Shown piece by piece: positions 4,292-28,528 of a stretch of DNA of 34,773 nucleotides. Numbering within the stretch: position 1 is the stretch's first letter; each line of letters begins with the position of its first letter. The DNA comes from an uncultured bacterium (GTDB taxonomy: Bacteria; Zixibacteria; MSB-5A5; UBA10806), in assembly GCA_965541585.1 (NCBI GenBank), contig CBEUCH010000024.1, forward strand, positions 1-34,773. Direction: 5' to 3'. Position numbers and translations under genes: made by a program. The notes under the pieces were generated by a model. That model was not told the DNA's origin, searched no databases, and saw nothing but the letters and a program-made list of their open reading frames with translations.

Positions 4292-4320
4292 ATTTCCGAT
4301 AAATTACAATTATCGGAAAC
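4292..4320. repeat. Palindromic dif-like / tyrosine-recombinase-like site, copy 1
   Basis: ATTTCCGATAA-ATTACAA-TTATCGGAAAC: perfect 10-bp inverted arms around a 7-bp spacer, nearly identical to 28499-28527. Confidence 0.7.
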
Positions 4321-4324
4321 GCAA

Positions 4325-4357
4325 TTAATAAGCCGGGCCGTCTGATCACGACCCGGC
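4325..4357 (-). terminator. Putative intrinsic terminator after the 4389..5906 gene
   Basis: Minus-strand hairpin GCCGGGTCGT-gatcag-ACGGCCCGGC (one G.U pair) followed by TTATTAA. Confidence 0.55.
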
Positions 4358-4388
4358 ACAATATCATGACAATGATCTTAAAGAAGCC

Positions 4389-5906
4389 TTACTTCAACAA
4401 CACCATCTTCCTCGTCTCAGCATATTCTCCCGCCTGAATCCTGTAGAAGTAGATCCCTGACGAATGTTCATTCGCATCCCATACTATTTGATGATAGCCT
4501 GCTGGCTGCTCTCCTTGAATCAGTGCTTCAAGCTTACGGCCGAGTATGTCGTAGATGTCGATGGTTACCTTGGAGGCTGAAGGCAGGGTGTATCGTATTA
4601 TTGTTTTTGCATTGAAGGGATTGGGATAGTTTTGGATCATCACGATATCACTTGGCAATTCTCCGTAATCGTCTTCAGTTACTCCCACGAGATCGCTTGC
4701 TATTTTGAGTAACCAGGCATCATATGAACCTGCGCCGAAGGTGGAAGTATGTGCGCCAACAATATATCCCCCATCAGATGTCAGGTGGACAGAATGTGCC
4801 CTCTCGTCGTCGAAGCCTCCATATGTTCTTGTCCAAAGGGTATTACCTGATGCATCGGTTCTCACAATATAACAGTCAGTAAATCCTGCGCCGAAAGAGG
4901 CTGTCGACCCCACTATAATAAATCCGCCATCCGGGGTCTGCTTCACCGACATTGCGTAATCGTGGTCGGAGCCGCCGAATGTCCTTGTCCAGATGGTGTC
5001 ACCTGAGGCATTTGTTCTGACAACATAGAAATCCTGGTTTCCCGCACCATAAGATAAGGTGTATCCGGCGATAATAAGACCATCGTCTGAAGTCTCCTGT
5101 AAACAAAAGGCCTCTTCGCCATACGTTCCACCGTATGTTCTGGTCCAGAGCGTATCACCTGAGGAGTTAACTTTAACAACATAGAAATCCCAGCTACCGG
5201 CGCCGTAGGTATCGGTATATCCTGCCATGACGAAGGCACCATCCGAGGTCTGCACAACTGAATTTGCTCTATCGTTACCGGATCCACCCGCGCCATAGGT
5301 CCTTGTCCATATCGTATCGCCCAGGGCGTCCGTTCTTACGAGAAAAAAATCATAGGGATTGGGTCCGGGGGCGGTGCTCCCACTCAAAATATACCCTTCA
5401 TCAGAAGTCTGTTGAAGCGATTTGCAGTAGTCCCACCGCAGGCCTGGCGTGCTATAGGTTCTTGTCCAGAGAGTGTTGCCCGACGCATCGGTCTTTACCA
5501 GGTAGTAATCAATGCGAGTATCGTTCCAGTTAGCACGGCTAACCCCGCCGGCGACGTAACCACCATCGGCGGTTTGTTGAACTGAATTAAAATGGGTGTT
5601 GGTTGTGGCTTCTTCGTAAATCCGTGTCCAGATTGTATCCCCGTTGGCATCAGTTTTTACCAACCACGGTAGAATCCCTGCTGGGGGGTGGCCCCGTCCA
5701 GCAAAAATAAACCCGGCATCACTCGGCTGCTGGACCTGATAGCAATAATCACCTTGCGACCAACCATAGGTCCGTGTCCAAAGGGTATCCTGAGCGTGGA
5801 GAATATTCGGAGCCGGTATGAGCATCCAGCCAAGAAATATCAGGCATATTCGGATCCACCATATCCTTGAACTTCGTTCTCCATGATGCAAGTGACATTT
5901 TTTCAT
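4389..5906 (-). CDS. Secreted repeat beta-propeller protein (DTLWTRTYGG / QTSDGGY repeats) with T9SS type A-like CTD
   Basis: About seven ~50-aa repeats after signal ...LHA-Q; C-terminal QNYPNPFNAKT...SSGIYFYRI...RKMVLLK. Confidence 0.92.
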   Translation of the reverse strand: MKKCHLHHGERSSRIWWIRICLIFLGWMLIPAPNILHAQDTLWTRTYGWSQGDYCYQVQQPSDAGFIFAGRGHPPAGILPWLVKTDANGDTIWTRIYEEATTNTHFNSVQQTADGGYVAGGVSRANWNDTRIDYYLVKTDASGNTLWTRTYSTPGLRWDYCKSLQQTSDEGYILSGSTAPGPNPYDFFLVRTDALGDTIWTRTYGAGGSGNDRANSVVQTSDGAFVMAGYTDTYGAGSWDFYVVKVNSSGDTLWTRTYGGTYGEEAFCLQETSDDGLIIAGYTLSYGAGNQDFYVVRTNASGDTIWTRTFGGSDHDYAMSVKQTPDGGFIIVGSTASFGAGFTDCYIVRTDASGNTLWTRTYGGFDDERAHSVHLTSDGGYIVGAHTSTFGAGSYDAWLLKIASDLVGVTEDDYGELPSDIVMIQNYPNPFNAKTIIRYTLPSASKVTIDIYDILGRKLEALIQGEQPAGYHQIVWDANEHSSGIYFYRIQAGEYAETRKMVLLK

Positions 5907-6049
5907 AGAATTGCTCCATATTTTTGAATTTGAGAGACCAAATCGAGCCTACCTTGATTCCCTTTGATCGAATAGTCAGCCTTTTTGTTGCTTTTAAACT
6001 TATTGAGCAAGTTCGCCACGATTCGGATCATACCATCATTTTGACATCT

Positions 6050-6190
6050 TTAGTCATCGTTATTCGTCGGCTGAACACGCCCACTGCAATCAAGACTGCC
6101 TCCAGCGTAAGTTCGCATCCAGATTGCATCACCCGTTTGCTGGGCATTGAGAAAACAAAGTGCCAAAACAATCACGGAGGCAAGCTGCAT
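6050..6190 (-). pseudogene. Degenerate N-terminal remnant of a fourth repeat-propeller paralog
   Basis: MQLASVIVLALCFLNAQQTGDAIWMRTYAGGSLDCSGRVQPTNNDD* aligns with ILFAQEQGDTIWTQTYGSTQLDIGYDVQQTDDGG of 9191..10501, then stops. Confidence 0.65.
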
Positions 6191-6234
6191 CGACACCAGC
6201 GGTCGATTATCTATGATCTTAATATTCTTGGGCG

Positions 6235-9144
6235 TCACACGGCTCCTGTGGTAGTGGCCTTGCGCCGCCTGATGGCCGCCACCGTACCGGCGACCAGCAA
6301 TGACAGCGCCATGATGATCATGCCCCATTGGGATAGGGTGGGGATCTGAGGCAGCTCGCTTGAAACATGAAGACTAACAGGTATATCAATGCTCGGATTC
6401 ACAGGATCATTGCTGGCCAGATTGATGTTGCCGGTATATATTCCCTCATACAGCGTCCTTGTATCGAAGGTAAGGGTTGCATTAAAGCTGTCATGCGGAT
6501 CTACTGTTCCCGAAGCCGGAGAAACCATAAGCCAATCCGCTACTATATCTATGGCCAGATTATTGTGCATATATGGAGCGTTAAAAACCACTTCGAGCCC
6601 ATCGGTACCGTCTATATTTTCAATACCTATGGTAGCGCCTTCGAGACCATCGCTGTCGGAGCCAGGATCCATTGTTCCGTATTGTAGTGTTATCTTACCA
6701 CTTGAATATAGTATCGCCTGAAAGCTCAACGAACCGGTTCCTCCACCGCCGGCAGCACGATTCGGCACGTTGTCAAAGCTGGCAATGAATCGATCGTTCT
6801 CGCTGTCCTGATAATAGTAAATGTCGCCGCCTGCCGATGGATTGAGATCGTCCCACCAGACACAGATCATATTATCGGGATTTGCCTGATTGGGGATATC
6901 CGCGTTGCCATACACTGTCGACCCCCCCGTGAATGTTAGCATTCCATTCGCGCAGATATAAAGGTATGAGACGTTGTATTCATAAAACGGAAATGAAAAA
7001 CCGATAGGGATCGGACCGGCATAATCGTCGTCTCCAAGGACAACTGGCGTTCCAACATCTGAGATATCTACCCATTCAAACGTTGGGCCATAGGTCTCAT
7101 CGGAGTCAATCCAGATATGACCGTAGCCATCCGGTCCACCCCCACCCATGATGGTCGGAGAGGAAAATGGTTCGTTTATAATACCCTCTTTGTCTACGTC
7201 GCCGATTCGATAACCGGGAGGAGCAGGTTGCTGCGTGAGCAAAGCTTTGGTCCCATCGCCTCCGCGGAAGCCATGATCGAAGACCTCCTCAGTCAGGGTA
7301 TAATCCAGGGGGCCGTCTCCGTCATTGTAGATGGTCAGAGATCTTTCCTCTATATCACCCGGTTGAACATAAACATTAAATGATGATGGACTGTACGAAA
7401 CGACCGGAGGTGGAATCTGGTCGAGTTGAAAGTCCAATGATACGGTGTCCTCGGGGGAGAAAGAAACCGGTACCTCCTGGGAAAGATAGCCGAAATGAGA
7501 AGCCCTTACGGTATATGTTGTCTCGGGGAGTGCGCTGAGGATATAGTAACCTGATTCGTCCGCCTGAGTAAAAGCCCAGTATCCTATTATTTCTATATTC
7601 GCGGGAAGGGGCTCGGAATTCGAAGCATCAGTAACGTATCCTTCGACGTACCCAAAATCTGCCATAGCCAGCTGCACTGCTTCGTAGGCATCAACCATGC
7701 CCCAACCGTAATCGTTGTCTTCCCCCGGATCTCCGAGGTCAAATGCTGCGTCATACATTACCTGCTTTACTTCTTCTATACTGAGGCTGGGATTGACTTG
7801 CCTGATCAAGGCCACCACGCCGGCTACATGCGGCGCCGCCATGGATGTGCCACTCATAACATAGTAATTGCCTCCGGGATAGCAGGAACGGACCTGCACA
7901 CCTGGAGCGGCTATATCCGGCTTTATAGCGGCACCGCCGCCCGGTGTGCAATACGTGGGTCCTCTGGATGAAGAGGAGGCGATCGGCCAGTCGGGATCGT
8001 GGGCGTTAACAGATGCCACCGCAAGCGTCCGATAATCGTCGGTGGCCCGGTCAGCGGGGCGATCAAGGCCGGCATCGCCCATGTTGCCGGCGGCGAAGAG
8101 TATCAGCGTACCAGCAGCCTCGGAGGCATCGAGATAGCTCCAGAAGAGCTCATCGCAGGGAGGATACCCGTGACCGTCCCTCACGCCCCAGGAGTTAGAG
8201 CACACATCGGGTACGTCCCAATTGGTTGACGGGTTGCCGTCAGGATCGATCATCCACTGAAAACAGAGAATTATATCAGCAATCATCTCCGGTGTCCCTG
8301 TACCCCTGCCGACAGGTGCAGAAGCGATCCAGGTAGCACCCGGGGCTACTCCAACGGTATCTCCCGGCTCCGCACCGGCAAGCGAGCCCATCGTATGCGT
8401 GCCATGGCCATTATAGTCGTAAGGAAGATCATTCTGGTTAAGAGGGTCATACCAAGCCCATTCCGGATGACCGTCATAACGAGGATCGGCGACTCCCGCC
8501 CAGCGATCCGCCAGCGCTGGATGGCTGCCGTCAACGCCGGTATCCATGTTGGCCACCAGAACTCCCGAGCCGGTAGCGCCAATGGCCCAGACCTCAGGAG
8601 CCCTAACCGCTTCAATGCCAATTTCAACCGAAGTTATAGCCCCACCGATATGACGATTGATTTCCACCGGCTTAACGAGTTCAATCTCATAGTTGTAATA
8701 GACTCTGGCGACATCCCGGCGCTCGGCAATTTTTTCAATTTCGGCTTTTTCGGCGTCGACCCTGATAGCATTAGTTATCCAGAAGGCTCTAAAATCCCTG
8801 ATCTTCCCTTCAATTTTAAGCCCGGAAAGATATGTGATTATATCCTTCTGGGTGGCCTCAGCTAAAGTCTGCAGGGCGCTAACAACTGTCTCGTGGGTAT
8901 GTTGAGCCGTTGCATCTTGCCTGGCCATATCCTCGCTGATCGCTGTCAAGTTCACCTGGTCGGCCAGGTATACAAGTACAGATATCTCCTGGTGGGGAGA
9001 AGTGGATTCCAGAATAACCTCAAGGCCAGAATCAAGCTCGCCCCCCAACGCGGATAAGCCCCCAACATTCAGCCCGAAAAGCTGCAGAGAAAGGGAAATT
9101 GCTCCAGCAATCAGCAACTTATTCGGCTTCATATTATTTCTCAT
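6235..9144 (-). CDS. Secreted S8 (subtilisin-like) serine protease with carboxypeptidase-regulatory-like and GGPD/nidogen-like modules and IPTL-CTERM
   Basis: Catalytic motifs VANMDTG, HGTHTMG, GTSMAAPH; oxyanion AAGN; propeptide; C-terminal IPTLSQWG + TM + RRRK. ATG at 9144 or 9132 preferred over the TTG at 9171. Confidence 0.93.
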   Translation of the reverse strand: MRNNMKPNKLLIAGAISLSLQLFGLNVGGLSALGGELDSGLEVILESTSPHQEISVLVYLADQVNLTAISEDMARQDATAQHTHETVVSALQTLAEATQKDIITYLSGLKIEGKIRDFRAFWITNAIRVDAEKAEIEKIAERRDVARVYYNYEIELVKPVEINRHIGGAITSVEIGIEAVRAPEVWAIGATGSGVLVANMDTGVDGSHPALADRWAGVADPRYDGHPEWAWYDPLNQNDLPYDYNGHGTHTMGSLAGAEPGDTVGVAPGATWIASAPVGRGTGTPEMIADIILCFQWMIDPDGNPSTNWDVPDVCSNSWGVRDGHGYPPCDELFWSYLDASEAAGTLILFAAGNMGDAGLDRPADRATDDYRTLAVASVNAHDPDWPIASSSSRGPTYCTPGGGAAIKPDIAAPGVQVRSCYPGGNYYVMSGTSMAAPHVAGVVALIRQVNPSLSIEEVKQVMYDAAFDLGDPGEDNDYGWGMVDAYEAVQLAMADFGYVEGYVTDASNSEPLPANIEIIGYWAFTQADESGYYILSALPETTYTVRASHFGYLSQEVPVSFSPEDTVSLDFQLDQIPPPVVSYSPSSFNVYVQPGDIEERSLTIYNDGDGPLDYTLTEEVFDHGFRGGDGTKALLTQQPAPPGYRIGDVDKEGIINEPFSSPTIMGGGGPDGYGHIWIDSDETYGPTFEWVDISDVGTPVVLGDDDYAGPIPIGFSFPFYEYNVSYLYICANGMLTFTGGSTVYGNADIPNQANPDNMICVWWDDLNPSAGGDIYYYQDSENDRFIASFDNVPNRAAGGGGTGSLSFQAILYSSGKITLQYGTMDPGSDSDGLEGATIGIENIDGTDGLEVVFNAPYMHNNLAIDIVADWLMVSPASGTVDPHDSFNATLTFDTRTLYEGIYTGNINLASNDPVNPSIDIPVSLHVSSELPQIPTLSQWGMIIMALSLLVAGTVAAIRRRKATTTGAV

Positions 9145-9190
9145 ACGGTCGGCCACGGCGACCTGGTGCAAGAACGCAGAGGATTGGCCT

Positions 9191-10501
9191 CTACGAAACG
9201 TTCACCACATTTATCTTTCGCCTGCGAACTACAGCAATCGTGCCGGATGCAAGCAAGAGTAATCCCAGAACGATCATTCCCCATTCAGAGAGCGTTGGCA
9301 CTTCCTCCTGCGTACCTTCGCTCTCTATCTTCAGCAGCCAGACCTGGTATTCATCCTGGGGGTCGTCAAAGGACTTGCTTTCTCCGACAATAACATACGC
9401 GCCGTCATCAGCTTGAATTCCTCCGTAACCATAATCGTGGAAGTTTGCGTCGCCATAGCTTCGTTCCCATTCTAAGGTACCCTCGCTGTCAGTTTTCACC
9501 AGGTAGACATTGAAATCAGTTGGATAGGTGCCGGTGCCTCCGAAAATTGCATAGCCGCCATCGGACGTTTGCACAACAGAATGAGCCCGTTGGTATAAAG
9601 TCATCCCATAGACGTTCTCCCAGACCAGAGCGCCACTGGCATCAACCTTCAGAAGGTAATACTTAAGCCCTTCCCCGAAAGAATAGGTGTAGCCTGCAGC
9701 TATAAAATCGCCATCGGAGTTCTGTATAACCGACCAGGCCTCATCATTTTGTCCACCCCCAAAGGTGTTATCCCAGGTGAGGTTGCCGGTCGCATCAGTC
9801 TTCGCCATGTAAACGTCAATATTACCGGGGGCGTCGGTTTTCCCGACCAGTACATACCCGCCATCTGCGGTCTGCTGGACGGAATAAACGAACTCATTGG
9901 TTTGATTACCGCCATATTCGTCATCCCATTCAATACTGCCATCAGCATATGTTTTTACCAGGTAGGCATTTTTATAGCCCTGGCCGGCTCCTGTCTTGAA
10001 CCCGGCAACAATATACCCTCCATCTGTGGTCAGCTTTACAGAATGGCCCATATCTTCATAGTTACCGCCGAAAAGATAATCCCACTCCATCAGCCCTTGA
10101 GAATCGGTTTTTATGAGCCAGAGATCGTAGTTGCCAGAAGGATTAGTTGTGGTGCCAACAACTATATATCCTCCGTCGGTAGCCTGATGAACTTCTCTAC
10201 CTTGGTGAATTGAAAAGCCTCCGTATATACGTTCCCAGAGTAATTCACCACGATCATCGGTTTTAACGAGCAGGAGATCATAGAGACTGCCGCGGTCAGC
10301 GATGCCCGTAATTATATAGCCGCCATCATCTGTCTGCTGCACGTCATACCCAATATCAAGCTGAGTCGAGCCATAAGTCTGGGTCCAGATAGTATCGCCT
10401 TGCTCCTGAGCAAAGAGAATGCATGGGATGAGAACCAGCGATAGGGTTAACAATATCATCCTCATCCGACAGCATTGCCTGCTCCTCTCACGTTTCATCA
10501 T
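9191..10501 (-). CDS. Secreted repeat beta-propeller protein with IPTL-CTERM
   Basis: QTxDGGY / WxxxYGG repeats; C-terminal VPTLSEWG + TM + RRRK. Confidence 0.92.
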   Translation of the reverse strand: MMKRERSRQCCRMRMILLTLSLVLIPCILFAQEQGDTIWTQTYGSTQLDIGYDVQQTDDGGYIITGIADRGSLYDLLLVKTDDRGELLWERIYGGFSIHQGREVHQATDGGYIVVGTTTNPSGNYDLWLIKTDSQGLMEWDYLFGGNYEDMGHSVKLTTDGGYIVAGFKTGAGQGYKNAYLVKTYADGSIEWDDEYGGNQTNEFVYSVQQTADGGYVLVGKTDAPGNIDVYMAKTDATGNLTWDNTFGGGQNDEAWSVIQNSDGDFIAAGYTYSFGEGLKYYLLKVDASGALVWENVYGMTLYQRAHSVVQTSDGGYAIFGGTGTYPTDFNVYLVKTDSEGTLEWERSYGDANFHDYGYGGIQADDGAYVIVGESKSFDDPQDEYQVWLLKIESEGTQEEVPTLSEWGMIVLGLLLLASGTIAVVRRRKINVVNVS

Positions 10502-10637: not shown

Positions 10638-13600
10638 TTACTTCAGCAACACCATCTTCTTTGTCTCGACAAACTCACCAGCATGAATCTTGTAGAAATA
10701 GACACCGGAAGAAATATTGTTTGAATTCCAGGTTATCTGATGGTAGCCCGATTGTTGGTGTTCGTTGACAATAGTTTCAACTTTTCTACCAAGAAGATCA
10801 TAGATGGCAACAGTCACATGAGAAGCTTCGGGTAAGGCATATTTGATTGCTGTTTGTGCGTTGAAAGGGTTGGGGTAGTTTTGTGATAATGCAAACTCCG
10901 TTGGTAGTTCCATGGTGGTGGCGTCCTCGATATCTGTAGGCGTTACTAGAAAAGTAACGGGGATCGTTATCTCGCTGACCTCACGATAAAGATCGTAACC
11001 GTTCAATATCATCGATCCGCGGTATTCTCCTTCATCCAAAAATGTAGCATCGAATATGACAGTTACATCGAAATCATCACTTGGGGGCACCCTCCCGGAA
11101 CGTGGATCAGCCAAAAGCCATCTTTCCTGAATCTGGACCGTCAAACTGTCATGAACATATGGCTGATTATATGCCACCTGCAACCCGATCACCCCCGCTC
11201 CGTCCTGGATACCTATCGTCGCAGAATTATCGGGATAGTTTATCTCGGCGTAATTGAAAGTGATCATTCCGGAGGATGTCAATATAACCTGCGCAGTGTA
11301 AGGACCGCCGGACTCATAATGCGGGATATCTATCCACGAAACGACTGCGGAATCGGCGTTGGTGTAAACCCATACTTCACCTCCTCCTGGAGGAGTAAGG
11401 TCATCCCAGAACGGGGCCACCAGATTTTTGGGAGCTCCCGGTTCAGGAATTGGTGTATTAGCATATGCAGTTGAGACGTCGGTAAAGCTTATGAAACAGT
11501 TGGAGGAGACCCGGAAACCTGAGAAAAACTCGCCGTAAAACGGGAAGTCGAAATCAATGAAAAACGGACCATCGTTCTCATCGTCCTGCATACTTAACTG
11601 TTCGCCGCGGCCCACGATGTCCACCCATGCATAAGCCGGCCCGCCTGGCTCATCGGAATCTATCCAAAAATAACCGTACTCATCTGGCCCGCCCCGATCC
11701 AGGGTCAAAGGTGGATAGGTTTCCTGAGGATGATCTTCGGATTTATTGTACTCCTCAATGATATTCCGAAAGGCCGATACAAATGTCCAGTCGGGGACCC
11801 AACGACCAGGGTGCAGGCGACGGTCGTCAGTCTCCATCGAAATCCTGAAGTTCAGTTCGAGCCCCCCCGGATTCGATATGGTCAAATTCCCGAAGGTAAT
11901 CTCCCCTGAATACCCGTATACCTCGAGAGAATCCGGTTCGACCGCCATCCTGGCCCCCATCGTGGGGGTGGCTGAAATTTCGTTGGAAGGCATTGACTCT
12001 CCTGTCTCGCCATTGACATCATAAACCGAGGTTACCACATAAAAATACGTGGTATCATCGGTGACGGTGGAGTCGAAATAGACATTCTCCTCAATATACG
12101 TATCGTTCAACCTGTGGGTCGGATCTGTAGGCACGTCCGCCGTCAGGGAGCGATAAACGTTGTAGCCGAGCAGATCAAGGGTCTCCAACGGCCGAGGCCT
12201 TTCAACCCCGGCTGGCATTATAGTCGCTGCCTTAGTATCGCCGATGCCGGAAGCAATGGAGACACTCATTCTCCCAAGGGCATTGCGATTATCTATTGAG
12301 GCGAGCTCCATAGTAGGTGTGGATTCAGCCAAACGCAGTAGCCTGCCCCCATTATCGACTACGGTGGCCCTGATCATATGGTCGCCGTCGAATATATTCT
12401 GCAGGCCCCAGCTGCCGTCTTCTCGAGCCCACTTATGCTCCGGGTAATCGGTTGTTTCATCGATACCCATGCCGTCCTCGCCGCCACCGGGTAAGTTTTG
12501 AAAAGCGACCCAGAAATTGGGCCCGTCCAGCATAACTCCACCCGGAATAGGCAGAGTTATCCATTCCCCTAATTCACAGATGGTTTCTTGATAAAACGCC
12601 CGTTCTCCGGGCCAGCCAAAACCGTTGTCATCCCATACAGAGATTCCCACGGGGTCATGACCACGGTCCGGCCACGGCCAATGGTTATCTCCCTGAGTCA
12701 ACAGACGCACCCAGAGGGTTTCAACTTCAACCGGAGAAGTGGCCACGAACCGGTTCGCCATGAGATTATCGCGGGAGTAATAATAATAGCCGAGGCTAAG
12801 TCTGCCATCGTCATATTGGAGAGTCTCTGTAGGCCGAACGCCGGGCGCTGTCCATGAAAGCGGAACATGCCCGTCCCGGCCGGAGAGCCCCTCCAGGTTA
12901 AGAGGCGGCACGTTTCCCACCGAGACGAAGACCCAATTGGAATACTGAGACTCCAGCGGTGGACTGCCATCATCGATTGCTGTTACCACCACGATATAGG
13001 AACCGTCTTCACCCTCTGGGATCGCCATCACAAAATTTGGCTCTGTGCTGGATCCATGCAACTCATACGATCCTCCGGGAAATAGTTTTCTGTAGATGTT
13101 ATAATGATCCAGATCGCCCATCAGGTCCGTAAACGACCAGGCAAGGTAAACATCATAATCATCAACACTTGCCTGCAGATCTAAAGGAGGCTCAGGAGGA
13201 TGGTTTTGTCCGCGTCCCACGGCAATGTCGGTCGGGTCGGATTCTCCGACCGCTGGATAAACAGCTGTTACATAATAATAATGATCGACGCCGTTGGGAA
13301 CCGGTGAATCCAGATGGGAACTGATGTCACCTGGAAGCTCTGCAATCTGCTCGAACGGCCCGGAGGGATTATCGGCCTTGTAAACTCTGTAGCTTTGCGG
13401 GAAAACCTCGGAGGTGCGATCGACGTAATTTGCGGCGTTATGCACCAGCGCAATCATATCGCCTGTAAACTGCCGAGAATCTCCGATGTACTCATTGATC
13501 CCGACGACGGCAACATCCGGGGCGGTGGCCACGAAAGGCACGCCAGTATCCCATGATGCAACCCACTCACCGGCGTTGACGATGGCAACGTTTGCCAGAA

Positions 13601-19558: not shown

Positions 19559-20458
19559 CTAGCTGATACCACCTCCTTTAGTATTAAGAACGTGATAATC
19601 GGCTGCTTTTTCCCATAAAGCATTGAAAAGGGTCTTCAAGGTCTTGGCTAAACTCTGGTGCTCAATTATCAGAGTGGTTACTGACGGCTTTTTTAAAAGA
19701 GGATCTTCCATCGTAAAAATTACAGTCTTTTCATCGAAGATGGCCAATTTCATGGGAAGCTCCCCTAAGGCTCTTGCCTTCTCGCCTACCTTGACCATCT
19801 CATCCGCCTCTTGATAAATCAAGCGCCGCTCAACAGGATCGGAAGGTATCTCATATATCGATTTGTGAATGACACCCCTCTTCAAACTTGTTATCTCGCC
19901 CGAAACCTGGCCGTCTAACTCTTTCGATCCTAGACCTGCCGCATAGGGCGGTTTAGTAAAAACCAGAACCTCTCTCTTGGCTCCCTCCACTAGCCGCGCG
20001 AACCTGGTGGCCACCTGCGACGGCTCTTTTATGATCTCGATATAATCAAGCGGGCTCTCATTATTTCGGCTTCCTTTGTAAAGAGGGGTTAATTCCTTTA
20101 TCAAATTGGCTAAGTTCTCGCGGCCGGCCCTCTTTTTTTCAAGTATCTCGTCTTGCTTCGAATATAGCTTATTAAGCTCGATCTCAAATGTGCCTTCGAG
20201 ATCAGCAACCCCTTTCTCTTGAAGCAATGCGGGATCCGAGGCGCTGTATCTCCTTGACCTCCCTGGTCTTGAAACGCAAAACCCTTTGGCTAATAATCTC
20301 TCCAAGGATTCGTAAGCGTTGGTGCGAGGTATTCCGGCAATTTTGGAAACCTCTTGAACAGTCAGGGTGTCCTTTTGCAGAAGGGATAGGTAACTTTTTG
20401 CCTCATTGGCAGTTAGCCCCAACTCATGGAGCTTCTTAAGGGTGATGGGGTTGGTCAT
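19559..20458 (-). CDS. TrmB-family transcriptional regulator (winged HTH + PLD-like effector domain)
   Basis: LGLTANEAKSYLSLL...EVSKIAGIPRTNAYESLERLLAKGF matches the TrmB HTH; C-terminal LPMKLAIFDEK...FNALWEKA. ATG at 20458 follows AAGGA; the track start is a TTG at 20491. Confidence 0.9.
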   Translation of the reverse strand: MTNPITLKKLHELGLTANEAKSYLSLLQKDTLTVQEVSKIAGIPRTNAYESLERLLAKGFCVSRPGRSRRYSASDPALLQEKGVADLEGTFEIELNKLYSKQDEILEKKRAGRENLANLIKELTPLYKGSRNNESPLDYIEIIKEPSQVATRFARLVEGAKREVLVFTKPPYAAGLGSKELDGQVSGEITSLKRGVIHKSIYEIPSDPVERRLIYQEADEMVKVGEKARALGELPMKLAIFDEKTVIFTMEDPLLKKPSVTTLIIEHQSLAKTLKTLFNALWEKAADYHVLNTKGGGIS

Positions 20459-20498
20459 TTCGTTTTCCGTCCTTGTTGTGGTAGCAACCAACGCGACG

Positions 20499-20536
20499 AT
20501 ACATCAATAATATACATCAACAATTGAATGTGTCAA
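20499..20536 (-). promoter_or_regulatory. Putative sigma70 promoter of the TrmB gene with an overlapping 9-bp direct repeat
   Basis: TTGACA (20536-20531); TATATT or TATTAT at 16 or 18 bp; ATACATCAA at 20499-20507 and 20512-20520. Confidence 0.6.
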
Positions 20537-20894
20537 GAAAAAAAGATATTTGTACTAATTGGTTTAGGAATTTTTCAATGCTTAAGGCTTGATTCTAGCC
20601 CTCTTCAAACAACCTGACGAAGATTTTTTTCACTTTTGTATCCGGCATATCTAATTCTTCGGATCACGGATAATAATCTTTTCTACACACCATTGCACTG
20701 TTCCCCTTTTATATAATCGCCGGTCCAAAATTGTATCAGGTGGCGGTTGAAAAATGTTCCACCCGGGTTTAAATTAAACACGCCGTGGCGTGGCAGTCAA
20801 TTAAGATGCATAAGACATTCCAAACCATTATATGACCTACTGCCTCGAAGCGGCCTTTTCATATTTTAGTATTGTTGACGCGGCTGCCCTGCGC

Positions 20895-21023
20895 CCCTAA
20901 CTCCAAGATTCACCAGTAACGGATATTCGTGATAAATGAACTGAAACACATTAGCCTTAGAATGAAGACAGACTATTTTAAAAGCCGCAGCTATTAGCCA
21001 TCTGGTGCAATCTTTTGTTAGGG
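20895..21023 (-). mobile_element. Integron attC recombination site (129 bp)
   Basis: Minus strand reads CCCTAAC-AAAAG-ATTGCACCAG ... CTGGTGAAT-CTTGGA-GTTAGGG: complementary R''/R' boxes and L''/L' with one extra base. It lies 53 bp downstream of the 21077 stop. Confidence 0.85.
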
Positions 21024-21076
21024 TCTTTACTCATTGAAATCAATAATCAATTCTGACCTCTTCTTTTTACTCTGGC

Positions 21077-21604
21077 TTACCTTGCTATATCTGTGGCCTT
21101 AAAGGCTAAAGGACGCTTAGATAAAGTCAAGGTTTCATTCCCGAGCCACACAGCCGCAACGGTATTTCTTTCTTTAATCAATTTATGATCTGGTAGAAAT
21201 GCGACCAGCTTATCTCCATTACCGGCTGGGTGTAGCCTCGTATTGATAAGCGTCTGTCCATTAAGTACGATCGCAGGAGAGCTGGCTCTCGGGGTTGGAT
21301 CAATCTGTTCAACAAGAAGAACCTCAACTACTAACGGATTGTCGGCTTTCCCAAGAAAGTTCGTACCAGCCAGTTTTGCCATCTCTTCATCCATTTTGTA
21401 AACGGAAACTGATTGCAGTTCTACAGGTTTTACAAGTTGAGAACGATCTATGGTTTGAGGCCTGTCCTTGTCCACAGGCTTGATAGGCTGAGGCCCGTCT
21501 GGTACTGGTACCTTGCAGCAGGACATCAGCCCGATAATCAGAAAGGTTGCTATCAGCTTCAAAAGAAAATTAGCCTTATCGCGAAAATTCAATATCGTCG
21601 ACAT
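21077..21604 (-). CDS. Hypothetical lipoprotein (second gene of the integron cassette)
   Basis: RBS AAAGGAG; hydrophobic stretch ending GLMS-C (lipobox-like); overlaps the upstream gene end by 29 bp. Confidence 0.8.
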   Translation of the reverse strand: MSTILNFRDKANFLLKLIATFLIIGLMSCCKVPVPDGPQPIKPVDKDRPQTIDRSQLVKPVELQSVSVYKMDEEMAKLAGTNFLGKADNPLVVEVLLVEQIDPTPRASSPAIVLNGQTLINTRLHPAGNGDKLVAFLPDHKLIKERNTVAAVWLGNETLTLSKRPLAFKATDIAR

Positions 21605-24449
21605 AAATATCTCCTTTGGCGGGGTATGAAAATTTAAATTTTATTGTGTCAATATCCTCAAGTGTAACACCGGATTTATTCATAATAAAGGAATGCAACG
21701 GAATCCTGACAGTAGTCATAACATTATGGTCACTACCAATGCGATTGTACGGGTGAGGAATTTGACCAAAGTAAGTCGCCCATGTGGTTTTGTTCTTACC
21801 GCCACCGATTAATTCGACTTTGAAATCCTGCCCGGCGCTTGCCGGATTATCAGTTGAATTTGTCTGGGCAACCCTGAATGAAAGAACCTCGAACGTAGAG
21901 GCGTCTCGCTGGGCAACCGGAACCGTGTAAACCAGTTGGTCGGTGTATTGTGACCAGTTTACCTGAAGCACCTGAGAATCATGTACCGAAGGGCCCGTTA
22001 TTGAGCTGTATGTAGCTGCTGTGGCAGGTGCAACCGGTGTTGTCACATTTGTTCCGCTGCCACCTTCAATTTTTGAATGGTCCTTTTCATGTCTAAAATG
22101 ATATATCTTGAAACCAGCAGTAGACGGGAAAATAAGTTGCCCGCGAAGCATATCCTCGTACACCTGTTCATTATTCAGATGTATCCTCGTAAACGCCGCA
22201 AGGTACGCTTCGCCGATACGCTGTTGGTCTCCTTTTAATATGTAGTCATCACGTGGAGTCCACGAATCATCGCCATCATCGGCCCAAACAGTGTTGAAGA
22301 AGTTGTGATTAGCGCCGTAGACATCGATACCGCTTTTAGTTGTCAAGTCAACAGGAATTTCAGTGCTGCCGGCATTATCATAGATCCTAACGCCATAGAG
22401 GCTCGATACATCCCCATCTGCCGCCGGTATGATGACAAAATAGGGAACGTCCGGAAGGACATTATGACTTACATCCATTGGTGCAATCGAAGATACAGAT
22501 CCGATGGAAAAACCGTACTCGGCTGGATTGTCAGCGTTGATCAGGTAGGCCTTAACCGACGCTTCTCCGCCTCTTGAATGGCCTGAAACGGAAATCTTCG
22601 ACATATCAACATGGTTGTTAAAATTGCCGCTGAAGAAATCAGGATATGTCGCATAAGTAGACGGGTCATTCATGTGCGACCACAATTGAATATGTTTAAG
22701 AATGAGGGTGCCACGTTCTTCTGGCCACTGTGGAACAAAGCCTGTCAAGTCATAGGCATCAATAGAAACCGCTATAATGCCATGGCTAGCGAGGATTTCT
22801 AGTAATCCCATATAACCTTTATGATTGGGTGTTCGATCAGTGCATTCAGCATGTGTGGGATATCCCCCCGTTTCGCAGATTTTGTGATTGCCGTGTTCTA
22901 TAATAAAAATTGGGTGTTGGCCTGGTACCACTGGTGCGTTATCACCGGAGTGTGCTGCAGGGTATCGGACGATAGCGCGGAGATCTACATCGTAGGCATT
23001 GCCTATCGAGCTGAAGTAATCGTCCTGGCTGTACTCGCCCCGGCCGATTGGATATGGGCCTAATTCATACGGGTCCTTGGCAACGACAAAGCCAACCTGA
23101 TCGGCACCATCGAGAAAATCCACCGGTTCATTATATTCACCGTCTGAAGCATAATCATTTTTTGTTTCTGCCGCAAATTCGCCGAAGTCCACAACAACAT
23201 CATATTCACCCAATGTGAGAGGCGGCTCCCAAATCTCAATATCCGTGCCGTTGACACATCCTGGCTTGACAGGCATAATTTCAATGTTACCACCCGCTGA
23301 CACATCGAGAAGAGCAATCGATCCACCTGCAGAAGGGTCCCATCCATTTACATCGCGATGGTTTACTACGTAGTAAGCGGCATAGCTACCACCAAGATGA
23401 CCGTCAGGCAGATACGTGGGGTCAACGGCTCCCCAGACAGCATCATCGTTCTCGGCAAAAGAATCAGAAAACTGGAAATACGGAGAGCCGGGAATTGGTC
23501 GGCCTGCAATGTCCATCGTAGGACCACCAACTGGATATCGCATGAAAAGAATAAACGCACTGTCGGAACCGTAAGATATCATATCATTTCTTCGTACTAA
23601 TCGCGAAAACTTGCGCATATCCATGAGCCGCTGGCCAACAATATCATAGACACCTCGTCTTTGAAGCTCTCTATCCCATACACGAACCGTAAATCGACCG
23701 TTCTGATCAGCTTTGACCGGTAGTTGAGCGCCAGCCCCCCCAACTCCTGTGACATCATTTATTGGATCATCCACATACCAGCTTCGTTGATTCGGCACAA
23801 TTGATATCTGGACAACTTCCTCAGGTTTGAAGTTTCGTCCGCTCACATACATATCCTGTTCTTGCACAGCAGCGCTATTTAGTAAACAGCCCTCTGCGTC
23901 AGAAGGATATATCATCGGATTCTTCCTGGCTATCATCGGAATTTGGATTCTGGAAACTGCTTTGCCGGTTTTAAGTTTCATAAGAGGTATTTTCCCTCCT
24001 GGGTCCGATTGAACCGGATGAACAGAGATGTTCATATTGCCGCCGCTTAAGTATCTTTCTGCTTCCTCAAAAGTACGATACATGTAACGTGGAAGATCTT
24101 GGTCTTTTATACGTGGAGAACAGCCGATGACACCTGAGTGGTACTGCAATATAAACGATGGAATATTACCGTTTCGATCCGTTGACAATCTGGCAAAACT
24201 GACTGCTTGATCTAAAGCTACTATTTCCTCCGAGTTGATACCAAGTCGGAACTCATACAGTTGATTCGGTTCAAGACCGCGAGCCGACAGATGTAATGAT
24301 GAGCCAACCTCCAAAGAGTTAACTCTGCGATTACCAGCATCAAGTACCATAATACCATGCGTTACCGGTTCAAGTTGAGGACAAAGCGAAATGCAGCCGT
24401 TAGTCGCCATGAAAGCCACACTAATAAAAATGAACGAGTATCTATACAT
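21576..24449 (-). CDS. Large exported alpha/beta-hydrolase (chlorophyllase/esterase-like), possible lipoprotein; first gene of the integron cassette
   Basis: RBS AAAGGAGG; signal ending ATNG-C; HGNH, GY..L...LASHG, nucleophile elbow GHSRGG, ADGDV, ANHNFFNTVW; C-terminal beta-sandwich-like region. Confidence 0.85.
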   Translation of the reverse strand: MYRYSFIFISVAFMATNGCISLCPQLEPVTHGIMVLDAGNRRVNSLEVGSSLHLSARGLEPNQLYEFRLGINSEEIVALDQAVSFARLSTDRNGNIPSFILQYHSGVIGCSPRIKDQDLPRYMYRTFEEAERYLSGGNMNISVHPVQSDPGGKIPLMKLKTGKAVSRIQIPMIARKNPMIYPSDAEGCLLNSAAVQEQDMYVSGRNFKPEEVVQISIVPNQRSWYVDDPINDVTGVGGAGAQLPVKADQNGRFTVRVWDRELQRRGVYDIVGQRLMDMRKFSRLVRRNDMISYGSDSAFILFMRYPVGGPTMDIAGRPIPGSPYFQFSDSFAENDDAVWGAVDPTYLPDGHLGGSYAAYYVVNHRDVNGWDPSAGGSIALLDVSAGGNIEIMPVKPGCVNGTDIEIWEPPLTLGEYDVVVDFGEFAAETKNDYASDGEYNEPVDFLDGADQVGFVVAKDPYELGPYPIGRGEYSQDDYFSSIGNAYDVDLRAIVRYPAAHSGDNAPVVPGQHPIFIIEHGNHKICETGGYPTHAECTDRTPNHKGYMGLLEILASHGIIAVSIDAYDLTGFVPQWPEERGTLILKHIQLWSHMNDPSTYATYPDFFSGNFNNHVDMSKISVSGHSRGGEASVKAYLINADNPAEYGFSIGSVSSIAPMDVSHNVLPDVPYFVIIPAADGDVSSLYGVRIYDNAGSTEIPVDLTTKSGIDVYGANHNFFNTVWADDGDDSWTPRDDYILKGDQQRIGEAYLAAFTRIHLNNEQVYEDMLRGQLIFPSTAGFKIYHFRHEKDHSKIEGGSGTNVTTPVAPATAATYSSITGPSVHDSQVLQVNWSQYTDQLVYTVPVAQRDASTFEVLSFRVAQTNSTDNPASAGQDFKVELIGGGKNKTTWATYFGQIPHPYNRIGSDHNVMTTVRIPLHSFIMNKSGVTLEDIDTIKFKFSYPAKGDIYVDDIEFSR

Positions 24450-24693: not shown

Positions 24694-24954
24694 TTAATCG
24701 GAGCTCGTCGCCACTGCCGATCCCAGGGCGAGGGGGCTACGAACGCCAGCCGGTCCCCGGTTGAGAGCGTGGGTGTAAATCATGGCCGTCTTGACGTCTT
24801 TATGCCCCACGAGTTCCTGAACCGTCCTGATGTCGTAACCAGCTTCCAACAAGTGCGTTGCAAACGAATGCCGGAAAGTGTGACACGTAACCCGCTTGGC
24901 CAAGCCAGCCTTTGTGACAGCCTCTTTCACCGCCTTTTGAACCAATGATTCGTC
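24694..24954 (-). pseudogene. intI: C-terminal fragment of integron integrase
   Basis: [12 protein letters not shown]...[51 protein letters not shown] is the IntI C-terminal signature; the N-terminal ~three quarters is missing. Confidence 0.88.
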
Positions 24955-25226
24955 CTCGCCCACAAGGCAATCTAAACCTTCTCTCAACTCCAACTCCTAT
25001 TCTTCCCTCAAGATTCTCAAGTCAAACAGTCTTAGATGGCCAGCCCAGAAAAAGCCGGTATTTAAAAAACATTCCCGGGGGGTGGGAAACTTTACCTAAA
25101 GAAAGAGACTCTCGTCCAGATTTGTCAAGGACTTTTTAGCGGAATATTAGCCACCGCTACCATGGCCCCAGACTTTCCTTATTAGTCAACCTCAAAAAGG
25201 TCAGACGTGATGAATTGAGGGCTTGG

Positions 25227-25252
25227 GGAAACGAAAAAGCCCCGAGCGGAGC
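25227..25252 (+). repeat. Partial direct repeat of the site-2 right arm plus adjacent half-terminator
   Basis: GGAAACGAAAAAGCCCCGAGCGGAGC matches 28522-28547 GGAAACGAAAAAGCCCCGACCGGAGC at 25/26 positions. Confidence 0.75.
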
Positions 25253-25269
25253 TACATCAGGTGACAAAG

Positions 25270-25332: not shown

Positions 25333-28131
25333 CTAATCACTCCTGCCAAGAGCAACTCTGCGTCTCATCACAACAGCAACCGTCCCCATGGATATGAGCA
25401 ACAAAGCCAGGATGATCATTCCCCATTCGGAAAGGGTAGGGATATTAGTTTCCTGAAACATCTGGATATTGAGAATCGTCGTATCGCCCATATCGACAGC
25501 CACGCCATAAATGGTCGTGTCTCTAAAATCGATATGCGAGAATCCAATGTTATAAATACCGGGAGCCAGATTATCCAATGAGTATGCTCCCGCGGCATCG
25601 GTGGAATCTTCGATCGATGTCTTCAATGCCATTACATAAACATCCTCAATAGGATTGGATATCTCGTCGATCACGTATCCAACAATCGAACCCGCGAGTT
25701 CATCTCCAATGATGGTAACCGTTCCCTCCGACCAGTCGCCGGAGATGGATCCGCCATCTGTTATCTCGCAATAGGCCCAGTATATGTCCTCCTCCAGGTA
25801 CGCGGTATTGACTACATAGAAACCCAGATCAGCGTCGGTATAGAGTGATGATGACATAAGATATTCGTTGCCATCGAACTGAGGAAGGTGGTTCAAATAG
25901 ACGGTTACCCAGCATAGGTCGCTTTCGGGATCCGAATAGGTCCACTCAACATTAAACGTCTGGGCCCCATGGATAATAAAAATATTTCCTTCCGGGGGAT
26001 GAGTTGTTGTGACCGACGGCGTCTGGTTTTGAGGCGGATTCACGGTCAGCGTATAATATGGGTTGACCGCACCGTCGAAACCAAATACTCGAATATAATA
26101 CCATCCCTCGGGTCTGGATTCCATCGAAATAATCTCCACGTCGCCGACGCCGTTTGACTGGCCGACCTGTTCGCCGTTTTCATTTAACAGACGCAGATCG
26201 AGGTCGCCCAGGCTATGTTGAAACTCGATTTGCACGAAATCGTTCGAGCCGCCGTTATGGTTCGAATAAAACTTGAAAAAATCTTCATTGCCGCTTTCGT
26301 GAACGTTCAACCCGGCAATGATCCGCTCCGGACCGCAGGGTCCGAGATTAGGGCTGTTAGGCCCACCTGCTGGGCGGCTATCCACCATAGAAGTTGTTTC
26401 GTTTGGCTCATACGGATCGGGGTTAATCTGATCGGGGCTGCCTATTACGACCAGGATTCGAGTAGCGTTATTTGTCTCATCTTCCTCAAGAACACCGTCG
26501 GCAGGATCGGCGAGCGACTCAAGCCAGTAAACGCCATCCGGGACATCCGTGATATCGATATTCTGGCCGGGAAGCGATTTGCCGTAAATATCGATCCAAC
26601 CAACCGATATCCCCTGGATGGTCGAAGAACACGAATGAAACTGCCCGTCGGGATCGAAGTAGGGAAGATTGTTGTCGTAAATAGCGAGATCCAGAAGGCA
26701 AAAACTGGTCTTCGTTCCTTCTGCGACAAGAGGCCCGACGCCGCCCCCATCAAGTACTTCCCTTAAACGATATGAGCACCAGTTTTCGAAATGAATATGG
26801 CTGTGCCCCGGGTGGAAAACGAAAACTCCCGCCGCCCTATCCCAGAATGAACCGTCGGAGCGAAATATGCGTTGATTTACCTGCTGGGTGCTGTCGCTAT
26901 CAGGAGGAAAGAGCCCGTAGACGTATAGTTTGCCGGAGCCGATGTTGGCGGTTCCATTAGCTAACCTCAGATGAGTTCTTCCGGGTTCTATATCTGTTAC
27001 TATATCGTTGTCGTACAAATCGGATTCCCTGACGATGATGTCCGGCAGCCGATCCACTATATCGCCAGCATCGAAAGGAACGCCATCGACATTCAATTCA
27101 TATGCTCCCTCAGACGTTCGCCAGCCGTCCACTATTATATAGTATATCCCCGGATATAATGCTGCGTCTTGAATGAATGATTGATAGCTACTGCATCCAG
27201 GAGCGTCATCGTTGCAATACATTTGGTTCAGATTTTCATCTAATATGGCCAGTTTGCTGTCGAACCATACCGGGTCACAGGTGGTCCAGACATCCATCAT
27301 CATTGTCGTATCGAGGGTGATCTGATACCAGTAATCCGGCGCCGTATTGGGGCCTGATAACTCACAAACGATCATTACATCATCGCATGCTCCAACAGTA
27401 GTCCCCTGGTCTGTGTAAGGCAGAGTAAAGATAACAATTGCGTTTGACTGATTCGATCCAGAACAGGGCGGCTCCTGAATCGTCCAGCTGGCATTTAATT
27501 CGTACGGGCCAGAGGCTCCGTTGTAACCATCCACAACTACGAAATATGTCCCCGCTCCCAAGGGCTCATCGGTGATCCGCGATTGATAATATGGGCCTCC
27601 GCAGTCGGGAGCGTCGTCGTTGCAGGCCAGAAGAACAAGATTATTATCGAATATCCCCAGTCTCGTATCGTAGCTTGGCGGCCCGGATGATTCGCATGTC
27701 GTCCAGACCGTCAACAAAACCGTTGTATCAAATGTCACAACATACCAGGCATCCTCGGCCGTATCGTTACCCCCTGAAAGACAGGAGGGGATAGAGGCGT
27801 TGTTTCCTTTGCCCGAGGTGTTTCCTGAATCGAAGTAAGGATTGGAATTGATTATGGTGGCGTTGCTGGAATCGGTTCCGCCATCTAATCTGAATCCGGG
27901 CGGCTCCAAGGCGTCTCCAGTTTCCTGTAACCTCATGCGATATTCGGCTTCCAGCGCGTGCCAGAGATCGCCCGGGTATGGTTCGCCGATAGCTTTTAGC
28001 GAGTCAACCATAATCTGCGTTGGCGAGCCTCGCTTATCTGCCCTCGCGGGAGACAGGAGGATGAGATAGATCGAAACGAAAACCACTGTTGACCATAGAA
28101 TTGATTTCAAGGTTTTACCCTTCGAATTCAT
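25333..28131 (-). CDS. Lysyl oxidase-family domain protein with PPC-like domains, carboxypeptidase-regulatory-like domain and IPTL-CTERM
   Basis: LPD...FHPGHSHIHF...YRL...GTKTSFCLLD...QGISVGWIDIY...GQNIDITDVPDGVYWL...E.DETNN follows the LOX catalytic-domain pattern; two Cys-rich NDD/VDG repeats; ends IPTLSEWG + TM + RRR. Confidence 0.88.
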   Translation of the reverse strand: MNSKGKTLKSILWSTVVFVSIYLILLSPARADKRGSPTQIMVDSLKAIGEPYPGDLWHALEAEYRMRLQETGDALEPPGFRLDGGTDSSNATIINSNPYFDSGNTSGKGNNASIPSCLSGGNDTAEDAWYVVTFDTTVLLTVWTTCESSGPPSYDTRLGIFDNNLVLLACNDDAPDCGGPYYQSRITDEPLGAGTYFVVVDGYNGASGPYELNASWTIQEPPCSGSNQSNAIVIFTLPYTDQGTTVGACDDVMIVCELSGPNTAPDYWYQITLDTTMMMDVWTTCDPVWFDSKLAILDENLNQMYCNDDAPGCSSYQSFIQDAALYPGIYYIIVDGWRTSEGAYELNVDGVPFDAGDIVDRLPDIIVRESDLYDNDIVTDIEPGRTHLRLANGTANIGSGKLYVYGLFPPDSDSTQQVNQRIFRSDGSFWDRAAGVFVFHPGHSHIHFENWCSYRLREVLDGGGVGPLVAEGTKTSFCLLDLAIYDNNLPYFDPDGQFHSCSSTIQGISVGWIDIYGKSLPGQNIDITDVPDGVYWLESLADPADGVLEEDETNNATRILVVIGSPDQINPDPYEPNETTSMVDSRPAGGPNSPNLGPCGPERIIAGLNVHESGNEDFFKFYSNHNGGSNDFVQIEFQHSLGDLDLRLLNENGEQVGQSNGVGDVEIISMESRPEGWYYIRVFGFDGAVNPYYTLTVNPPQNQTPSVTTTHPPEGNIFIIHGAQTFNVEWTYSDPESDLCWVTVYLNHLPQFDGNEYLMSSSLYTDADLGFYVVNTAYLEEDIYWAYCEITDGGSISGDWSEGTVTIIGDELAGSIVGYVIDEISNPIEDVYVMALKTSIEDSTDAAGAYSLDNLAPGIYNIGFSHIDFRDTTIYGVAVDMGDTTILNIQMFQETNIPTLSEWGMIILALLLISMGTVAVVMRRRVALGRSD

Positions 28132-28253
28132 TGGTTTTTCCTCAATAACCAGTAAGGAGTTTCATTTGAATTGCTGCCCGGTAAGATTCTCCCCAAGTAA
28201 GGAATGAGGCAGATCCGGCCATCTGTTGATAACAATAGCCTTTTTCAATTTGA

Positions 28254-28282
28254 AATATACGAACAGGCGAGATATTTGTCAA
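28254..28282 (-). promoter_or_regulatory. Putative sigma70 promoter of the lysyl-oxidase-domain gene
   Basis: TTGACA (28282-28277), 17 bp, TATATT (28259-28254). Confidence 0.65.
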
Positions 28283-28498
28283 TCTATTTACCGGATAGGG
28301 TCCGGAATTGGGCCGATCGACAAGAAAAAGTGACTCTGGCGATGTCGGTTACGGCACGACCGTATGGAAAAAAGTAAGATCGGATTACGAATCGGTGCTA
28401 ACTGCAACAACCCTTCTCCGGCGGATAACGGCAACCGTGCCATGCCCCCACCCCTCAACCGCCGGGGGGATGATGAAGTGTAAGCAGAATTGTCCCCC

Positions 28499-28527
28499 AT
28501 TTCCGATAAGTTCCAATTATCGGAAAC
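28499..28527. repeat. Palindromic dif-like / tyrosine-recombinase-like site, copy 2
   Basis: ATTTCCGATAA-GTTCCAA-TTATCGGAAAC; arms identical to copy 1 and spacer 5/7 identical, in the same orientation. Confidence 0.7.
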
Positions 28528-28528
28528 G

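Follow-up and report, generated by a model that had tools for sequence, protein, structure and literature searches.

What are the two short palindromes that bracket a 24-kb block of secreted-protein genes in an uncultured Zixibacteria genome, and does that block move as one unit? The window, that is the whole stretch of DNA analysed here, is 34,773 nucleotides long and makes up the entire contig C24 of this genome (G000; 3.52 Mb, 40 contigs). An earlier reading of its letters, the original prediction, took the palindromes for dif-like sites of a non-integron recombination system that inserts or stacks secreted-protein modules. Both were found where predicted, with identical arms, as ATTTCCGATAA ATTACAA TTATCGGAAAC at 4292-4320 and ATTTCCGATAA GTTCCAA TTATCGGAAAC at 28499-28527, and above chance, with two matches in the window against 0.03 expected and at least two reached in 0/100 shuffles. 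On the minus strand each follows the predicted order of gene end, terminator, site and promoter, the terminators being at 4332-4357 and 28532-28555 and the sigma70-like promoters, assigned solely from consensus matches, at 4215-4242 and 28254-28282. The evidence supports a non-integron site-specific system whose symmetric sites with a 7-bp overlap bound secreted-protein-rich modules, and we put at roughly 0.8 the probability that the palindromes are symmetric tyrosine-recombinase sites joining cargo modules within integrative islands.

A 31-bp site family at which flanking homology changes

Starting from mismatch hits, a weight matrix settled on 19 sites scoring ≥24 bits, namely copies of CRTTTCCRHTAA-N7-TTADYGGAAAYG on ten contigs of G000; the predicted arm-N7-arm pattern does recur in the genome, and the window pair makes up 2/19 of its copies. 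The conserved unit of the family is 31 bp long, with the window copies at 4291-4321 and 28498-28528. Its spacer length is fixed: spacers of 4-6 and 8-10 bp gave no site at ≥24 bits in G000, a spacer of 6 none even at ≥14 bits, and nothing scored above 16 bits with the site matrix in two locally shuffled genomes. Within a set of 40 sites (19 from G000, nine from G129, four from G159 and eight from metagenome loci of apparent close relatives), most arm columns hold 1.4-2.0 bits of information and the spacer columns 0.12-0.31. The window spacers had been called related, which is true of the pair itself (2/7 bases differ), whereas genome-wide the spacer sequence is unconserved. The arm variants CCACT, CCGCT and CCGTT, also present among the sites, go together with the class of the flank. 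Sites in G000 are intergenic, except for short shadow open reading frames (ORFs) and one arm that holds the stop codon of a core gene.

Flanks were read outward from each arm and grouped into classes by a similarity threshold, above which 55/2556 pairs fell versus 0/300 shuffled. The 40 sites comprise 15 flank classes, 106 site pairs having one flank in common and seven having both, and 14 class pairings make a bipartite graph, as random pairings do in 122/5000 cases; these flank-pair counts are descriptive, because related genomes are not independent. In ungapped comparisons, C21:1634 and C28:1435 are identical at 39/40 positions on the left and 9/40 on the right, and window site 2 agrees with C28:7208 at 10/40 on the left and 32/40 on the right. 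Metagenome locus L129 matches C21:2647 (92%) from the left flank through arm and spacer, and C28:286 (87%) in the right arm and flank. In L129 as in the ungapped flank pairs, the homology switch falls inside the 31-bp unit. Modules are re-paired at the sites across genomes, as in Xer dif and pdif modules, and the synteny break that had been predicted was seen at the site, with the congener comparisons of C6:61473 and C28:7208 as exceptions. Recurring spacer groups were discerned (GTTACAA-like, TCCCCNN, CTACCTG, TATCCGG and GTGGGGA), yet one flank class occurs with unrelated spacers. An empty pseudo-site was met on C9 behind smc-ftsY-UPF0047, where G159 holds the weak form CCCCGATAA ATAGAGA TTATCCC at the end of the core gene; G000 has there the arm and spacer of that pseudo-site, then a consensus arm and a 3.08-kb kinase insert, and the other ten relatives read have no site at this locus.

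Sites also bound complete small modules. On C22, a 458-amino-acid (aa) type IX secretion system (T9SS) gene lies between the sites at 3854 and 5461, and on C28 the sites at 286, 1435 and 7208 enclose a cupredoxin gene and then three genes. Their setting is that of integrative islands: in G129 C2, four sites split a tRNA-SeC island, whose start is ~7 kb from dif, into replication genes and three cargo blocks, and 4/19 G000 sites stand 255-285 bp from tRNA-Ser attachment (att) remnants. In one element family (L132, G129 C2 and L137) the site separates the replication genes from an excisionase region; a conserved gene is common to one side, and on the other there is a D5 primase, a DnaB module or an insertion sequence (IS)-like end. 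In satellite-like elements the site comes after primase or DnaB genes, and several sites have IS-like ends no more than about 100 bp away. Besides many T9SS- and IPTL-tailed proteins, the cargo comprises a defence-like operon and genes for kinases, glycosyltransferases and radical SAM enzymes. A large tandem island is suggested by the several tRNA-Ser att remnants found on C18, C21 and C22. The tRNA-Ser-linked integrase (G000 C18:37316-38461) is 77-89% identical in five relatives, conserved like Xer proteins. A saccharopine dehydrogenase gene (G000 C28:7416-8788) is 96% identical in G159 versus the usual 78-85% between these genomes, which points to recent transfer because the identity is far above genome background.

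Among 201 genomes sampled from the phylum, the pattern matched in seven (18 copies in G000, eight in G129, three in G159 and one in each of four; reversed-pattern control 0), and more than one copy occurred only inside the genus; with a looser scan of the order taken in, multi-copy sites were limited to one family. That looser pattern, applied to 24 genomes of the order, gave the variant ATTGCCACTAA-N7-TTAGTGGCAAT in G079, G084, G105 and G203, as well as weak two-mismatch matches at control level. Within a class of another phylum the motif was present in 2/301 genomes, one copy each. A strict pattern scan of genome contigs returned four loci and is too narrow for measuring spread, 13 metagenome records were searched in part, and a blastn comparison with phages and plasmids yielded no match to the sites near full length. 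The same site was further observed in a metagenome group of 54-62% GC (L104, L105, L109, L112, L115, L118, L124-L126, L131, L133 and L136) with related flanks, spacers such as CGCCTGT and, at some loci, IS91, IS66 or RecG genes beside it; this group is probably another lineage with many copies.

Build of the 24-kb block

As predicted, the two window sites enclose all four IPTL-CTERM genes as well as the TrmB gene and the C-terminal piece of an integron integrase. The features, with flanks named by class, are as follows.

4230..4290, minus strand: D-class module end; sigma70-like promoter 4215-4242, before the BNR/T9SS gene 2688-4175
4291..4321: putative recombination site 1, CATTTCCGATAA ATTACAA TTATCGGAAACG, 12-7-12; D-class promoter flank left, A-class terminator flank right
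4322..4635, minus: A-class module end; terminator 4332-4357 and 3′ end of a secretion-tail coding region
4389..10501, minus: three secreted-protein genes (beta-propeller/T9SS tail; S8 protease/IPTL-CTERM; propeller/IPTL-CTERM)
10638..19339, minus: genes for a 2359-aa S8 protease with T9SS tail and a 439-aa propeller/IPTL-CTERM protein
19559..24449, minus: TrmB regulator, 175-aa ORF without family, 957-aa protein
24694..24993, minus: integron-integrase C-terminal fragment, a pseudogene, not intact
24994..25150, minus: M-class promoter flank; half-site-like stretch 25136-25147 immediately before TTGACA
25222..25254, minus: decayed internal site (25222-25233); A-class terminator, then just the outer 7 bases of one arm
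25333..28131, minus: lysyl-oxidase-domain/PPC/IPTL-CTERM gene, a single-gene cassette for a bacterial lysyl-oxidase-domain protein
28442..28497, minus: B-class module end, common to 9/40 sites and joined with at least three other flank classes
28498..28528: putative recombination site 2, CATTTCCGATAA GTTCCAA TTATCGGAAACG; B-class promoter flank left, A-class terminator flank right
28529..33521, minus: A-class terminator 28532-28555 and DNRLRE/beta-helix/T9SS operon

The block is a composite of smaller modules, and its polarity is that of single-gene modules, with a B promoter end at 28498 and an A terminator end at 4291. Its ends recur elsewhere: the D-class end of site 1 also abuts sites G000 C30:11742 and G159 C121, with other right flanks there; the A-class end at 4322-4635 is 80% like the flank of site C22:3854 across 314 bp; and the M-class flank abuts full sites in G129 C142, G129 C2 and locus L111. 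The lysyl-oxidase gene and its B-class promoter form a 3.3-kb cassette (25227-28528), whose 3′ end is marked by the decayed site at 25222-25233. In a read comparison spanning 24000-34773, of which most runs contained small shares, two contigs of one related strain (run X1) covered the cassette over 25227-28522, X1 and X4 contigs began or ended at 28499-28525, and two X1 contigs continued into other DNA left of 28500. A joint of 25228-28524 in run X2, considered as an excision, was accounted for by a paralogous terminator and not counted.

The 5.9-kb sub-block at 4733-10629 is 87% identical in G129 C40, in a context without any site. There the beta-propeller gene ends in an IPTL-CTERM tail (L089:8700-8830) in place of the T9SS tail of G000 (4389-4733), an exchange of sorting signals. 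Because this sub-block is kept in G129 free of sites and with a different tail, some module ends seem to arise by recombination in tail-coding repeats. For the genes of 10638-19339, only paralogues at 64-68% were found in the two congeners searched, and the stretch 19559-24449 has a DNA match at E≤1e-20 in 0/5 relatives. Its 957-aa protein (21576-24449) gave no Pfam, NCBIfam or PADLOC match and is alpha/beta-hydrolase-like by language-model features alone, secreted alpha/beta hydrolases being the nearest such neighbours. The integrase fragment matches TIGR02249 positions 238-312 of 315 with 125.6 bits, under the cut-off of 265; an attC candidate beside it (24485-24570) folds no better than shuffles (z 0.08) and was rejected.

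The idea that the 24 kb move as one unit is not supported, in view of the decayed internal site, the site-free sub-block in G129, the spacers differing at 2/7 bases and the failure to find an empty allele among the sites read. The operons flanking the block, described earlier as architecturally paralogous, are so only loosely (28% over a 213-aa beta-helix region, 29% over a 92-aa secretion tail). DNRLRE genes end 72-192 bp from a site at seven loci in four genomes, and the neighbour across the site is different wherever compared.

Known recombination sites and candidate enzymes

The closest tested site is the IntA att site of Rhizobium etli, TCCGATAA-GCATTAC-TTATCGGA (PMC4928290). IntA forms and resolves cointegrates of the R. 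etli CFN42 plasmids p42a and p42d via attA/attD (PMC4928290); in the p42a record, CACTTCCGATAA GCAGTAC TTATCGGAGGTT precedes the annotated integrase gene by about 110 bp. Both systems share the same 8-bp arm core TCCGATAA/TTATCGGA, a 7-bp centre and a symmetric site. They differ in that IntA is encoded next to its own site and joins two plasmids via sites differing in one base, whereas the present sites, 19 in number and chromosomal, have many different spacers and delimit cargo modules; an IntA-family gene was found neither beside a site nor in the genome. Cre/lox-type systems of phages and plasmids likewise use a palindromic site for one recombinase with direction given by the spacer, but their sites are described as 13-8-13, less than 1 kb from the gene and one per replicon (PMC10250229), unlike the 19 copies of a 12-7-12 site found here.

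The label dif-like did not survive: a genuine dif, GAGTCCTATAA GATATA TTATGTAAACT, lies on another contig (C17:20390-20417, minus strand) at a sign change of the GC skew and has been retained in G129, whereas the site family lacks an XerD-type arm and has a spacer of 7. An arm of the XerD type, TTATGT(T/A)AA(A/C)T, occurs in G000 only at the true dif, and both family arms follow one consensus. Identity with chromosomal dif was rejected as well, the family having 19 copies on ten contigs and not a single terminus copy. Beside dif itself, G000 is about 0.9 kb longer than G129, and a dif-like palindrome, GTTTACATAA TACTTA TTATTTAAAC, stands beside a Xer gene at L037:1866 (G079 C151). The pdif/XerCD modules of Acinetobacter are alike in that many short sites with spacer variants divide accessory DNA into swappable modules, that the recombinase is not encoded beside the sites and that modules are fused where an internal site has decayed (PMC13141974); IS ends adjoining sites (PMC10132070) and chromosomal dif module islands (PMC12907356) are described too. 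Their XerC and XerD arms are unequal, however, their spacer is 6 bp long and C modules alternate with D modules (PMC13141974), whereas the present sites have like arms, a 7-bp spacer and head-to-tail modules with promoter and terminator ends.

An integron integrase above cut-off was found in 0/5 genomes (G000 and four relatives), and Rfam gave no match. Integrons combine IntI, attI and attC and stack directional gene cassettes; the stacking and the IntI fragment inside the block are points of likeness, but the present sites are short double-stranded-type palindromes without attC structure, and the modules have their own promoters and sometimes several genes. With no intact IntI and with simple 31-bp palindromes as sites, an integron was rejected.

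The expectation that the window holds no cognate recombinase gene was borne out, the pseudogene fragment being its sole integrase trace. PF00589 matched six times in G000: a Xer pair (C3, C5), assigned by conservation and not individually typed, two tRNA-island integrases and two fragments; an integrase tree, a quick version with three wrong-frame rows, served for coarse grouping only. Over 54 sites and 1003 ORFs within 5 kb, no conserved new recombinase was found beside the sites, the genes near them being those for secreted proteins, DNRLRE proteins, island integrases, excisionase-like proteins and satellite functions. Two further candidates were discarded, an IS91/ISCR-linked recombinase (PF04986 in 1/5 genomes, not G000) and RIT elements (a RIT-like trio ~2 kb from the site at one metagenome locus, L108; none in G000). 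Among 41 metagenome loci with a stricter consensus, five hold a recombinase (two IntA/Cre-like, two XerC-like and one RIT-like trio). The XerC-like family (L103:861 and L141:1210; 70% identical to each other, about 30% to host Xer) has the site directly upstream of its gene; flanks related to these two occur in L123, L127, L134 and L135 with no recombinase gene in view, and tblastn of the L141 protein against plasmids gave only matches of about 32%.

A viral form of the motif, TTCCGATAA-N-TTATCGGAA, was searched in IMG/VR with spacers of 6, 7 and 8 and matched 24, at least 120 and 11 times, respectively. Long flanks were available for 80 viral loci. A tyrosine recombinase is encoded within 400 bp in 16 of them, and in 10 of these it is IntA-like with the site directly upstream of its gene (about five distinct proteins, 26-38% to IntA). 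Given recombination at the present sites, the enzyme could well be IntA/Cre-like and act in trans from an element not assembled in these genomes, a candidate that we favour at somewhat less than even odds; a host XerC-type protein acting alone, one of the tRNA-island integrases or some other enzyme is in each case unlikely.

Mechanism, rival explanations and wider scope

On the tyrosine-recombinase reading, the palindromes would be core sites for an IntA/Cre-type enzyme, one protein acting on both 12-bp arms with strand exchange across the 7-bp spacer. The sites would be carried by replicating integrative elements, such as tRNA-targeting islands and satellite-like elements, and recombination of a site with one on another element, or with a pseudo-site in the chromosome, would form and then resolve cointegrates. 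Module ends would be re-paired in this way and cargo would build up head-to-tail, in modules of 1 to >20 kb with single sites between; promoter-bearing ends would join terminator-bearing ends, so that each module would be a self-contained transcription unit.

A number of observations weigh against this reading. An IntA-like gene was not found in G000 (best 65 bits, a Xer protein, versus 196 for IntA), IntA-like profiles rose no higher than Xer-level scores across 24 genomes of the order, and a search of 261 phylum genomes, whose assemblies are incomplete for mobile DNA, found no IntA-like recombinase (best 108 bits versus 196); a site lies within about 85 bp of the integrase gene at only 3/30 island-integrase loci. 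Spacers of rejoined sites are often wholly different, a mismatch that the enzyme would have to tolerate, whereas exchange of dif modules requires identical or nearly identical spacers (PMC13141974). At its end the C9 insert repeats 56 bp of the end of the host gene (89%) together with a second arm, which simple site-specific insertion leaves unexplained, and at C6:61473 and C28:7208 congener homology breaks off 135-180 bp away from the site. No empty allele (28592 gene next to 4175 gene) was seen among the sites read, and no excised circle of the 24-kb block in the reads compared over 24000-34773. Arm positions 8-9 agree between arms in 23/40 sites versus 12.6 expected. Finally, TTCCGATAA-N7-TTATCGGAA lies within 700 bp upstream of terL, with no recombinase near, in 39/80 viral loci (L144-L166, L247-L324, e.g. 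L292:10001), in low-GC phages related to HTVC010P. A complete 35.4-kb phage of this kind (G269) carries the motif before terL with no PF00589 match, which means that either an enzyme of the host is used or the motif has a second role; next to terL the motif may serve for packaging, as an operator or, in the manner of P1 lox, for circularisation by a host enzyme. The regions read of HTVC010P and HTVC203P did not show it.

Four rival explanations are taken in falling order of the small probability we attach to them. An operator of a dimeric transcription factor or nucleoid protein, regulating or insulating secreted-protein operons while unrelated shuffling of promoters and terminators mixes the flanks, would suit a palindrome whose spacer is fixed in length and low in information, its place mostly between terminator and promoter, the half-site just before TTGACA in M-class promoters, the TrmB gene inside the block and the conserved position before terL. 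Such an operator is nevertheless improbable, since the site has no fixed position (116-654 bp from the start codon, about 50 to 215 bp from the −35 box), 3/19 sites lie between converging genes, homology switches within 31 bp, the downstream genes are unrelated in function and the pattern is present in few phylum genomes, in several copies only inside the genus. The original prediction would have read an unconserved spacer, in copies at a fixed distance from promoters, as the mark of an operator; the unconserved spacer is no such mark here, for homology breaks at the site and the distances to promoter and start codon vary. A single-stranded hairpin (REP-, attC-like or cruciform), processed by an HUH/Ssn-type nuclease or acting as a breakage hotspot with short-homology repair, is quite improbable. 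The window sites do form stems of 10-11 bp on folding (−8.1 to −8.2 kcal/mol, z about −5), but C28:7208 folds no better than shuffles (−0.6 kcal/mol, z 0); the covariation at arm positions 8-9 is offset by unlike variants there in 17/40 sites and by the tie of arm variants to flank class; and IS-like ends do lie near several sites, but an IS91-type transposase was not found in G000, G129, G159 and G079. The loop, moreover, is strictly 7, with no attC bulges and no GTTRRRY core.

A variable spacer does not suit cohesive ends, whose overhang has to be conserved; this makes very improbable a terminase or packaging site (cos/pac-like, with a 7-nt overhang) of satellites or of phage-derived host packaging, by which modules would be packaged and religated. 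The terL linkage, including the complete phage without a tyrosine recombinase, and the place of the site after primase or DnaB genes in satellite-like elements would suit packaging; the motif, however, equals a site with tested recombinase activity, is missing from the regions read of HTVC010P and HTVC203P and has its multi-copy sites limited to one family. Scarcely credible, lastly, are ordinary dif or pdif sites of a XerC/XerD pair: the arm has TCC-ATAA in common with the XerC-side arm of the host dif, the G129 island starts close to dif and the module logic resembles that of pdif, but there is no XerD-type arm, the spacer is 7 and not 6, the real dif is separate and conserved in G129, and the modules run head-to-tail and do not alternate as C and D.

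A broader proposition is advanced tentatively, at a little under even odds, namely that the tyrosine-recombinase sites belong to a third natural cassette-shuffling system. One trans-acting recombinase would use symmetric IntA/lox-type sites with 7-bp spacers, spacer groups would be compatibility classes, and promoter-to-terminator modules, including tRNA-element att ends, would be stacked and exchanged, thereby renewing the set of secreted proteins; unrelated phyla would use this type of site likewise, as would HTVC010P-like phages without an enzyme of their own. To our knowledge, integrons and Acinetobacter dif modules are the only established site-specific systems that stockpile and reshuffle accessory genes, and a literature search that took in few subscription papers and no supplements gave no account of multi-copy IntA-type module arrays. 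If true, a lox-like system with a natural spacer library would be a third route of accessory-gene reshuffling and would explain the mosaic surface-protein islands of this uncultured lineage; it would also provide a 31-bp searchable marker of module boundaries in metagenomes and natural spacer-variant sets for recombinase engineering, and it raises the question of which enzyme acts on the sites when the chromosome has no cognate gene.

Two repeat families with ~40 places in the genome (in the window 34641-34773, 34206-34239 and 20843-20883) end in TG(T/A)CCTGCCCCC, which we take to be like IS3-family ends. The second repeat family, near several sites, was considered as attC and dropped, as it resembles IS ends; one TG(T/A)CCTGCCCCC family starts inside the last site-arm bases in G129 C160 and L137.

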